Shown here piece after piece: positions 51,486 to 52,823 of a stretch of 64,000 bases of DNA. Below the pieces are notes generated by a model. The model made no database searches. It had not been told where the DNA came from and was given only the letters and a program-made list of their open reading frames with translations. Position 1 is the stretch's first letter. Each line of letters starts with the position of its first letter. The DNA is from a bacterium (lineage in GTDB: Bacteria > Patescibacteriota > Microgenomatia > Daviesbacterales > UBA10151): the NCBI GenBank assembly GCA_021786315.1, contig JAJYNN010000002.1, forward strand, positions 204,402 to 268,401, in the 5' to 3' direction. Made by a program: the position numbers and the translations under genes.

Positions 51486-52823
51486 ATGGGAAATTTCAAA
51501 GTGGTGGGAAAAGATAAAGGGGCCAGGGCGGGGATTTTAAAAACCCCTCACGGTGAAATTGAAACTCCGGTCTATATGCCGGTGGGGACCCAGGGAACGG
51601 TTAAGGCCTTAACACCGGAAGATCTGGTAAATTTGGGTACACAAATTATCCTGGGAAATACTTATCATTTATACCTTAGGCCGGGCCATAAATTAATCAA
51701 AAAGATGGGAGGCTTGCACAAATTTATGCACTGGGACGGCCCGATTTTAACTGATTCCGGCGGTTTCCAGGCTTTTTCCTTGGGGGCGATGATTGAACAT
51801 GGAGTGAGGAAAGTGGGTGGCACAAAGCGAGGGGTGACGGCAAGCGGGGCGCCCCATCGAGCGCCCGCAGGGAAGTTGCTACGACCGAGGACGTCGGATG
51901 GGGCTGCTAGCCGGCAGGACCCCGAGCTAACCTCCTTAGTTACAAAAATGACCGAAGAGGGAGTCCATTTTGTCTCACACCTGGACGGATCAAAACATCT
52001 ATTGACCCCTGAGCTTTCCATAGAAGTGCAGCTGGATTTGGGTTCAGATATTTGTTTGACATTAGATGAGCTGTTATCACCAACTCACAGCATGGAGTAT
52101 GTGAAAGATTCCTTGGAGAGAACACACCGCTGGGAATTACGTAGCCTGGAATACTTTAAAAAACATGCGGGTAAAGGAACTACTCAAAATCCACTGATCT
52201 TCGGGATACTACAAGGAATTGATAATGAGGAAATAAGGAAAGGCGAAGCCAAGTGGGTGGCGGCCCAAAATTTTGATGGAATTTCCATCGGCGGGTCTTT
52301 CGGAGTTAGCTCTTCTGCAGCTGAGGTGACGGCAGTTGAGGCTAGTTTAATGGGTTTACCTGCCTCCCACGCTATAGATCAAACTATGAGCTGGGTTGTT
52401 CCATTACTACCGGATAATTGGGCTCGACACGCCCTGGGGATTGGGGAAGTCTTGGACCTATTTGAATGTATTGAGCGGGGGGTGGATATGTTTGATTGTG
52501 TAGCACCGATGCGCCGGGCCAGAAACGGGAGCCTCTACATTAGCCCTAAAACGGGCGGAAAGCTTGCCAATAAGTATGTCCTATCAATTTTAAGGTCAGA
52601 GTTTAAGGAGGATAAAAAACCGATTGATCCGGAGTGTCAGTGTTATACTTGCCAAAACTTTACCCGGGCTTACCTGCGCCACTTATTTTTGGCCAAAGAG
52701 CTGCTTTATTACCATTTAGCTACCATTCATAACGTGTACTTCATTGTGAACCTGGTCAAAGACATCCGGAAAGCAATTTTAAACCAGCAATTTGCCTCAC
52801 TCAAAAAGACCTGGATTAAATAA
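51486..52823 (+). CDS. tgt: tRNA-guanine transglycosylase (queuine tRNA-ribosyltransferase) with a GC-rich in-frame insertion of about 52 aa.
   Basis: [25 protein letters not shown], GxDMFDC and zinc site C.C..C. The insertion lies between FSLGA and [10 protein letters not shown], which E. coli Tgt lacks. Confidence 0.85.

Follow-up and report, generated by a model that had tools for sequence, protein, structure and literature searches.

Rickettsia palindromic elements (RPEs; Ogata et al. 2000, 2002) are described (summary in PMC10969869) as in-frame insertions in unrelated genes. REP sequences are 20–40 nucleotides (nt) long and extragenic, usually number more than 100 in a genome, have a tag (GTAG or CGTC) at one end and are often arranged in BIME pairs (PMC3333891, PMC2817692, PMC3733652), and for insertion sequences (ISs) of the IS200/IS605 type orientation tracks the lagging-strand template (PMC5027513). 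Replication-tied orientation, a structural hairpin and the lack of a target duplication together make up the signature of HUH/Y1 single-strand transposition (PMC5027513, PMC6006769, PMC3333891). Here we describe a repeat located in the tRNA-guanine transglycosylase gene (tgt) of a Daviesbacterales bacterium (Patescibacteriota, Microgenomatia), within 64,000 nt of contig JAJYNN010000002.1 (positions 204,402 to 268,401, assembly GCA_021786315.1); this whole stretch is called the window, and positions without a locus name refer to it. The Tgt protein carries an extra segment, and in the GC-rich core of that segment we recognise a single copy of a repeat that is non-autonomous, GC-rich and able to form a hairpin, and that is scattered over Microgenomates genomes.

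Like RPEs, the repeats described here are short, palindromic and non-autonomous and lie scattered through a small genome, with some copies intergenic (PMC10969869); they enter unrelated housekeeping genes in frame without destroying them, apparently to be translated as an extra peptide, and neither kind is known to have an associated transposase. Unlike the RPEs, they reside in Patescibacteria/Microgenomates, measure 77–100 nt instead of ∼100–150 and are GC-rich in a genome of 46% GC. Compensatory stem changes, several reading frames, both orientations and a replication-strand bias, all documented here, also set them apart, and their apparent copy number is lower. The element works like an RPE, but the family, likened to RPEs by behaviour and not by sequence, is apparently new, and so is the phylum. 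A literature search returned no equivalent element described in bacteria of the Candidate Phyla Radiation (CPR) among the papers covered.

The longest open reading frame (ORF) of tgt extends over 51435..52823 on the + strand (462 amino acids) and matches PF01702 with E = 9e-123 (410 bits, cut-off 26.3). The likely start is the ATG at 51486 (MGNFKV...) or the GTG at 51501, the GTG form being the 440-residue database entry. Tgt is a 100% match to P0001, and the source names attached to its best homologues mark the host as Daviesbacteria-like, within the Microgenomates. Alignment to the solved E. coli TGT structure 10fb_A (E = 2e-84) showed that the catalytic set is kept, comprising the substrate Asp of the TDSGG motif, the nucleophile Asp of DMFDCV (D264 in E. 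coli, PMC13416341) and the zinc ligands CxCxxC...H. Since the catalytic and zinc-binding residues are intact, the enzyme is presumably still active. The phmmer alignment to 10fb_A is interrupted between ...FSLGD and IRKITEQ, where 50 Tgt residues (51789..51938, + strand) remain unmatched. The insertion point lies between E. coli D100 and I101 (the chain index of 10fb_A is the native number plus 1), and the hydrophobic residues on either side, the L of FSL and the V of SLVTKM, are kept.

An initial annotation of this sequence had reported a GC-rich in-frame insertion of about 52 residues, absent from E. coli Tgt, and had quoted its translation between the DSGGFQ and TEEGVHF segments. The translation reads exactly as quoted, and the absence from the E. 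coli enzyme was borne out for 50 residues. The GC content, given as 60% or more, is 0.62–0.66 in 100-nt windows at 51800–51950; the best 90-nt window in the insert reaches 0.73, the top peak of the 64 kb (mean 0.459, s.d. 0.077). The same annotation had judged the insert too short, and too poor in motifs, for an intein, and we agree. An intein needs ∼130 residues or more, splicing blocks, an N-terminal junction that supplies a nucleophile and a C-terminal one with His-Asn plus Cys, Ser or Thr. The Tgt insert has 50 residues, 33 of them from the element, starts with AMIEH, ends with LTSL and lacks an HN motif; moreover, the same element DNA is translated in other frames at other loci, which also speaks against an intein or mini-intein. 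An intron and an assembly artefact were rejected as well, the insert being small and in frame and the identical protein being recorded from 3 contigs.

The element copy in tgt occupies 51828..51926 on the + strand (99 nt, 33 codons, including CGAG...CGAG stem extensions). A Tgt of 57% identity, P0078, carries a similar peptide, and GCGGGGYGCCCCATCGAGYGCCCRCAG...CGAGGACRTCGGATGGGGCTGC is common to the DNA of its loop and to the window; nucleotide identity between these two elements is higher than that of the flanking conserved coding DNA. An exact pattern of the two arms, run over one genome per species (185,579 species), returned 6 copies, all outside tgt and all in metagenome-assembled genomes of Patescibacteria, Daviesbacteria or Microgenomates, 3 of which are labelled Gammaproteobacteria. 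The latter (L004, L005 and L007; CAYMIA010000005.1, CAZDEH010000021.1 and CAZZHC010000022.1) are titled 'uncultured Gammaproteobacteria'. The topoisomerase TopA encoded at L005 is closest to Daviesbacteria/Microgenomates proteins (75–79% identity), and the label of at least this contig looks wrong. A pattern of the right half, applied to metagenome contigs, added 8 copies and 3 chance matches; chance matches to the right arm (L008, L015) derive from a protein C-terminus (...EHLEDIGWG, stop). The 20-nt exact pattern alone is unspecific, and all copy counts rest on a covariance model, R1, which scored 16 of 16 copies at 84–104 bits. Five further copies were present in loci fetched later (L022, L023, L027, L029 and L030), bringing the total to 21 copies and one remnant in CPR contigs, with element lengths of 77–100 nt.

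Within the window, R1 gave a single match (51832–51922, 99.5 bits, E = 4e-21), in agreement with a blastn search of the insert against the 64 kb, which found no second copy. Other GC-rich islands of the window were considered as element copies and rejected as ordinary protein segments. A scan of viral contigs produced 3 pattern matches, none of them a true copy by R1, and so no evidence for phage carriage. The 33-residue element peptide had no phmmer match at E <= 0.001 among 1.84 billion representative sequences. Rfam 15 contained no relevant match at E <= 1 over 51300–52900, and at the gathering threshold over the whole window it reported 5 tRNAs only.

What is conserved among the copies is a long hairpin (51838..51913, + strand). 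The RNAalifold consensus of 16 copies is an irregular hairpin of 21 pairs, 9 of which show changes on both sides. Its helices pair 51838–40 with 51911–13, 51844–46 with 51905–07, 51851–58 with 51897–904 and 51861–63 with 51892–94; inner helices follow at 51865–66/51889–90 and 51870–71/51885–86, and an outer GGGT/ACCC pairing lies at 51832–35/51919–22 (all + strand). The apex (51872..51884, + strand; columns 44–65 of alignment A1) varies in length between copies, which accounts for the range of 77–100 nt. Across the hairpin 98.5% of cells are paired and 37 cells are changed on both sides, a result reached by none of 500 shuffles, while slid controls gave 32–44%. One outer-stem position shows four standard pair types (GC, AU, UA and CG), and therefore it is pairing, not sequence, that is conserved. 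Also conserved are a 4-nt bulge (GGGY), two G-T pairs for which no copy has a substitute, and a concerted pattern of change at A/G positions. The internal inverted repeat named by the initial annotation (51844–51868) is present, but it is not the conserved pairing: none of its pairs is changed on both sides in the 16 copies, and it does no better than shuffles.

We then considered where the copies sit. Long ORFs contain 16 of the 21, and the other five are found between genes or 5′ of one. Seven genic copies have the sense orientation, in Tgt (twice), a UvrD/PcrA-like, a TsaD-like and an L1-like protein and two ORFs without an assigned name; the nine antisense copies include those in YchF-like, DnaX-like and ClpB-like ORFs, in TopA (two sites) and in Tgt (twice). 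The Tgt and TopA hosts were named by Pfam domains (TopA via homologues), the others from their ORF translations. In the ClpB-like ORF the copy directly follows the Walker A motif. All 16 genic copies are free of stops in the host frame, which runs on for 43–308 codons downstream. Among sense copies often just one of three frames is open, yet the host frame is; the nine antisense genic copies all share one reading phase (xGPAGSQPHP..), though two or three antisense frames are open. Element translations are rich in Gly, Ala, Pro, Ser and Arg, and benign, low-complexity peptides seem to be what survives. Since the frame is conserved, the insert is probably translated into protein.

These host data bear on the idea of an element that acts on the RNA level, either as an mRNA hairpin (in regulation, stability or removal) or by spreading through an RNA intermediate. 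The compensatory changes and the invariant G-U pairs on one strand would suit it. With 7 sense against 9 antisense hosts, however, the well-paired strand is often not co-transcribed with the gene, and an open, in-frame sequence in every genic copy would be unneeded if the element were removed from RNA. In addition, no Rfam family matches, and the RNA fold of the window copy alone is unexceptional for its composition (z = −1.4), a value that says little on its own. We regard an RNA-level element as highly improbable.

Two copies have similar surroundings: an intergenic one (L006, 4327–4407) lies between comEC-like and comEA-like genes, and another (L014, 45–126) adjoins a comEA-like gene at a contig end, its far side being cut off. 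They are either one orthologous old insertion or a second hot spot.

Tgt was compared with its closest homologues (Daviesbacteria/Microgenomates). All 120 carry an insert at exactly this site, and therefore the insertion site is old. The spacing from DSGGFQ to EEGVxF is 44–166 residues compared with 23 in E. coli, that is, 21–143 residues longer. The borders of the loop are conserved (GAMIEHGV(R/K)KV ... L(S/V)K(I/M)TEEG) and its interior cannot be aligned among the 120 proteins. As judged from these homologues, the Tgt surface loop at this site is old and hypervariable in Daviesbacteria/Microgenomates, and ∼17 of the 50 extra residues, including ...LTSL, belong to this lineage-wide loop rather than to a recent insertion. 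The loop inserts of the relatives are mostly Lys/Arg-rich. A module, KSGKVYDTKNKTIHRHVTVELKPK, is conserved inside the variable insert of many Daviesbacteria Tgt proteins (P0008–P0053 and others) and may fold as a mini-domain beside the loop that binds tRNA.

An insert with conserved flanks in 120 of 120 relatives might suggest that the GC-rich segment is itself an old, vertically inherited and non-mobile part of Daviesbacteria Tgt that diverged in place. Against this, the same 77–100-nt sequence occurs between genes as well as in TopA and in ORFs resembling UvrD, TsaD, YchF, DnaX and ClpB. At the DNA level the element is missing from the closest Tgt relative, P0002 (76% identity), the same loop holds a sense copy in P0078 and antisense copies in P0006 (64%) and P0005 (66%), and the identity of the element exceeds that of flanking coding DNA between genes whose proteins are 57% identical. 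Divergence in place is refuted for the 99-nt core, and as an account of the whole insert we give it almost no weight; it holds for the ∼17 flanking loop residues. The initial annotation had proposed a mobile-element-derived in-frame insertion, to be abandoned if related Tgt proteins all had a homologous insert of similar composition. All of them do have an insert, but these inserts are non-homologous and of different composition; the proposal stands for the 99-nt core, a dispersed hairpin repeat, and not for the remaining ∼17 residues, so that the segment is not the product of one insertion. Given copies of opposite orientation in the loops of relatives, the Tgt loop has been hit independently at least twice.

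The genic copies lie in loops whose length varies among orthologues, as in Tgt and TopA. For TopA, 66 of 121 sequences (L005 and 120 orthologues) have a minimal hairpin turn of 25 residues, to which L005 adds 28 residues; 55 of the 121 carry something extra at this one turn. Traces of decay were also seen. At L028, in the TopA gene of P0235 (∼1720–1745), GGGTGACGG|CGAGCCGGCAGGACCC alone is left, corresponding to the two ends of the element; the junction falls at a GCGAGC direct repeat of full-length copies and the interior is lost. The copy at L023 is degraded and scores 35 bits. Short in-frame remnants (PAGPAGSPSP, PAGPAGS and GAGPA) were noted in the P0235 TopA of L028, in the P0158 TopA (residue ∼199) and in the Tgt loop of P0059.

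A second variable loop of Tgt (52302..52361, + strand) forms a gap relative to E. coli TGT with ∼17 extra residues. The segment spanning it is variable in all homologues (43–119 residues against 39 in E. coli), R1 has no match there and the loop is not an element copy. In some relatives it holds repeat-type peptides (VIPDLNRES, DLMDPRLRGDD). Peptides typical of other palindromic repeat families were also observed in the loops of Tgt P0035, P0052 and P0058 and of TopA P0124, P0131, P0140, P0175, P0192, P0137, P0178, P0217, P0150 and P0160, the types being ASEAKQSS..EIASS..RNDG, VILGR..SGQARMT, SRQSSVVSRQ and VIPHLMRNPG. Several element families thus appear, from these peptides, to enter the genes of these genomes in frame; since other-family peptides occur in the TopA and Tgt loops of relatives, the phenomenon is probably wider than this one family.

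The insert was placed on the protein with an AlphaFold2 model, as the initial annotation had proposed. The model shows a confident barrel (mean predicted local distance difference test score, pLDDT, of 82) and pLDDT values below 50 at residues 110–149, over the insert, and at residues 273–292; the insert peptide is predicted to be disordered. It splits the position of the tRNA-contacting loop L98–I104 of E. coli TGT, just past the DSGGFQ substrate motif. In E. coli this loop is disordered without tRNA and ordered in the covalent complex, in which A37 of the tRNA stacks on L98 and I101 (PMC13416341). On the simplest reading, the insert would be a disordered passenger looped out beside the anticodon-binding face of Tgt. 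The location could instead be taken to mean that a basic, flexible peptide has been kept as an aid to tRNA binding, a functional gain rather than baggage. Its position inside a loop that becomes ordered upon tRNA binding and stacks on A37 would fit, as would the mostly Lys/Arg-rich inserts of relatives, many of which share the same module. Yet in unrelated proteins the element is read in different frames and orientations, the closest relative has no copy, and the segment is predicted to be disordered within a loop that is hypervariable rather than conserved. Exaptation of this kind strikes us as quite unlikely.

The ends of the element were examined for signs of transposition. No target-site duplication was detected in the flanks of 20 copies, nor in the comparison of filled and empty TopA sites. 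Among the 20 copies compared, CGAG|..|CGAG flanks are exact in 3 (window, L007 and L027) and approximate in ∼6 more, and GC|..|GC flanks occur in 3–4. Both types lengthen the stem, adding C-G, G.A, A.G and G-C in the first case and G-C and C-G in the second. A classical MITE (a miniature transposable element bearing inverted repeats), whose arms are the terminal inverted repeats of an internally deleted IS moved as double-stranded DNA by a remote DDE transposase, would likewise be non-autonomous, with halves forming inverted repeats around a variable centre, and many bacterial MITEs yield in-frame fusions (PMC10969869). But the recurrent flanks, constant in sequence, prolong the stem and are not duplications, up to four standard pair types occur at one outer-stem position, and an orientation bias relative to GC skew, described below, is not expected of typical DDE MITEs. 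We consider a classical MITE unlikely.

The orientation bias was assessed from the GC skew of each locus, computed with the element itself excluded. Irrespective of host gene direction, the sense strand of the element is on the strand of negative GC skew in 19 of the 20 copies, or in 20 of 21 if L030 is counted, and the binomial p is 4e-5 (19/20), or 5e-4 if ∼16 events are independent. Where both gene orientations give the same skew sign, 8 of 9 loci follow the rule. Six of the seven sense genic copies are on the C-rich strand by skew, the opposite of what a coding-strand effect would lead one to expect. By analogy with the HUH/Y1 systems, the strand bias, the hairpin and the lack of a duplication would point to single-strand, replication-coupled mobilisation, which we infer from these features; differential retention of one orientation is an alternative source of the bias.

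Taken together, two layers are superimposed here, an old hypervariable Tgt loop and a dispersed hairpin element that fills most of it; the account as a whole, including the way the element would move, we think probable. The element lands inside as well as outside coding sequence, and with respect to transcription it may point either way. The genic copies that are seen keep the frame, are free of stops and fall in loops of variable length, where they are probably translated as an extra peptide; in the present case a sense copy adds 33 residues to Tgt. As to movement, a structure-specific enzyme acting in trans would take up the element in single-stranded form at the replication fork, much as the IS200/IS605 HUH/Y1 transposases or REP-RAYT do. 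Single-strand handling is suggested because the hairpin is kept by compensatory changes rather than by sequence, because it retains tandem G-A motifs, a conserved bulge of 4 nt and two G-T pairs that do not vary, because no target-site duplication is visible and because 20 of 21 copies have the same strand on the C-rich replication strand. They would then decay through point mutation and internal deletion and thereby feed the hypervariability of the loops.

Several observations weigh against this account. No transposase of any kind was found beside any copy or in the window and locus DNA examined; the ORFs flanking intergenic copies include none, a tblastn search of window and loci with an IS200 TnpA query, a weak test, gave no match, and no parent IS with the same terminal inverted repeats was present in this DNA. 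The window copy is the sole exception to the strand rule (+ strand, skew +0.087), and the skew of 1–8-kb loci is a noisy proxy for replication direction, partly confounded by the G-richness of coding strands. The apparent copy number is low, the 64 kb holding just one, and REP and RPE families usually reach higher numbers. The central helix was fixed by the search patterns used, and the invariance of helix 3 is partly due to them (L027, found independently, does have compensatory changes in the central helix). Compensatory changes in the arms could in principle also come from a transposase that binds double-stranded DNA and constrains terminal inverted repeats. Some copies (the TopA sites, the antisense Tgt copies) may be orthologous rather than independent, and the case for translation of element-derived peptides is made from frame conservation.

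Among the systems introduced above, REP/BIME-RAYT (Y1/HUH) resembles the element in its GC-rich imperfect palindromes, in a stem kept as structure, in the lack of target duplication and in being thought to be handled as single-stranded hairpins (PMC3333891, PMC2817692, PMC3733652). Unlike REPs, the element is 77–100 nt long, starts with (CGAG)GGGTGAC, is often genic (16 of 21 copies) and occurs singly (one in 64 kb); membership was rejected on size, tag, extragenic location and copy number. With IS200/IS605 and their non-autonomous derivatives it has in common the hairpin, the missing target duplication and an orientation tied to the strand (PMC5027513, PMC6006769). It differs from them in that no tnpA was seen in the window and loci, in forming one long hairpin instead of two subterminal hairpins flanking a gene, and in showing no conserved 4–5-nt target; of its two strands, the one that pairs better coincides with the C-rich strand, and this is not obviously the template of lagging-strand synthesis. 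The MITEs ERIC, BOX, Correia and QMITE1 are likewise small and non-autonomous, with inverted-repeat arms, and are occasionally found in ORFs, but they have terminal inverted repeats and target duplications and are mostly intergenic (PMC10969869), whereas the element has no visible duplication and 16 of its 21 copies are genic. Classical MITE membership fails on the absence of a target duplication.

The window contains other repeats. One family consists of ∼40-nt palindromes with perfect stems (AAGGTGACGCCTTG..loop..CAAGGCGTCACCTT), often followed by GAGAA or AAGAA, with copies at 11585–11623, 12487–12525, 15746–15784, 24732–24770, 26739–26777 and 59500–59538 and variants at 12441–12483, 12886–12928, 22673–22715, 29199–29225, 33204–33246 and 38957–38995. 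It is unrelated to the Tgt element except for a common GGTGACG 7-mer. The initial annotation had likened a ggtgacgg motif in the insert to this dispersed family; the motif is there (51833–51840), but it is the 5′ end of a different element and lies outside the AAGGTGACGCCTTG...CAAGGCGTCACCTT family. A link to the AAGGTGACGCC... palindromes of the window was rejected, just a 7-mer being shared and R1 finding a single copy. An AT-rich family of ∼60–115 nt, made of AATTTTCAATT/AAATTGAAAATT units in both orientations, is found at 16905–17024, 18032–18145, 20978–21063, 25501–25624, 27519–27641, 39270–39340, 56243–56356 and 63905–64000. A 157-nt sequence occurs twice (12956–13112 and 22822–22978; 97% identity, ∼9.9 kb apart), each copy including a GC-rich island; it is not a tRNA and matches no Rfam family. 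A giant ORF on the − strand (∼2370–12250, ∼3,293 residues) has many copies of a 50–60-nt coding repeat (..GGTTGTCCCGATACCCACATTACC..) and probably codes for a repetitive surface protein.

We put forward, tentatively and as a possibility that we favour less than its rejection, a broader reading: that Microgenomates host several small hairpin families which colonise permissive loops of essential proteins and are a main source of the hypervariable, lineage-specific insertions of CPR housekeeping proteins, the family described here being a structure-defined, replication-strand-polarised, single-stranded DNA element that is moved by an enzyme and that tolerates or exploits the tRNA-contacting loop of Tgt. 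If this were true, protein-coding palindromes would not be peculiar to Rickettsia. The RPE-like behaviour found in CPR bacteria points to essential genes having been colonised convergently in two unrelated small-genome lineages, the CPR family having a well-defined structure and a bias in replication strand. Hairpin insertion followed by decay through mutation and internal deletion offers a concrete mechanism for many unexplained insertions in CPR proteins, and with the covariance model every Patescibacteria genome could be scanned in pursuit of the mobilising enzyme. For annotation and phylogenetics the finding is a warning that such segments are non-homologous between orthologues and should be masked. 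For Tgt itself, the lineage amounts to a natural experiment, in which inserts giving the loop 21–143 residues more than in E. coli, where it stacks on A37, are tolerated.

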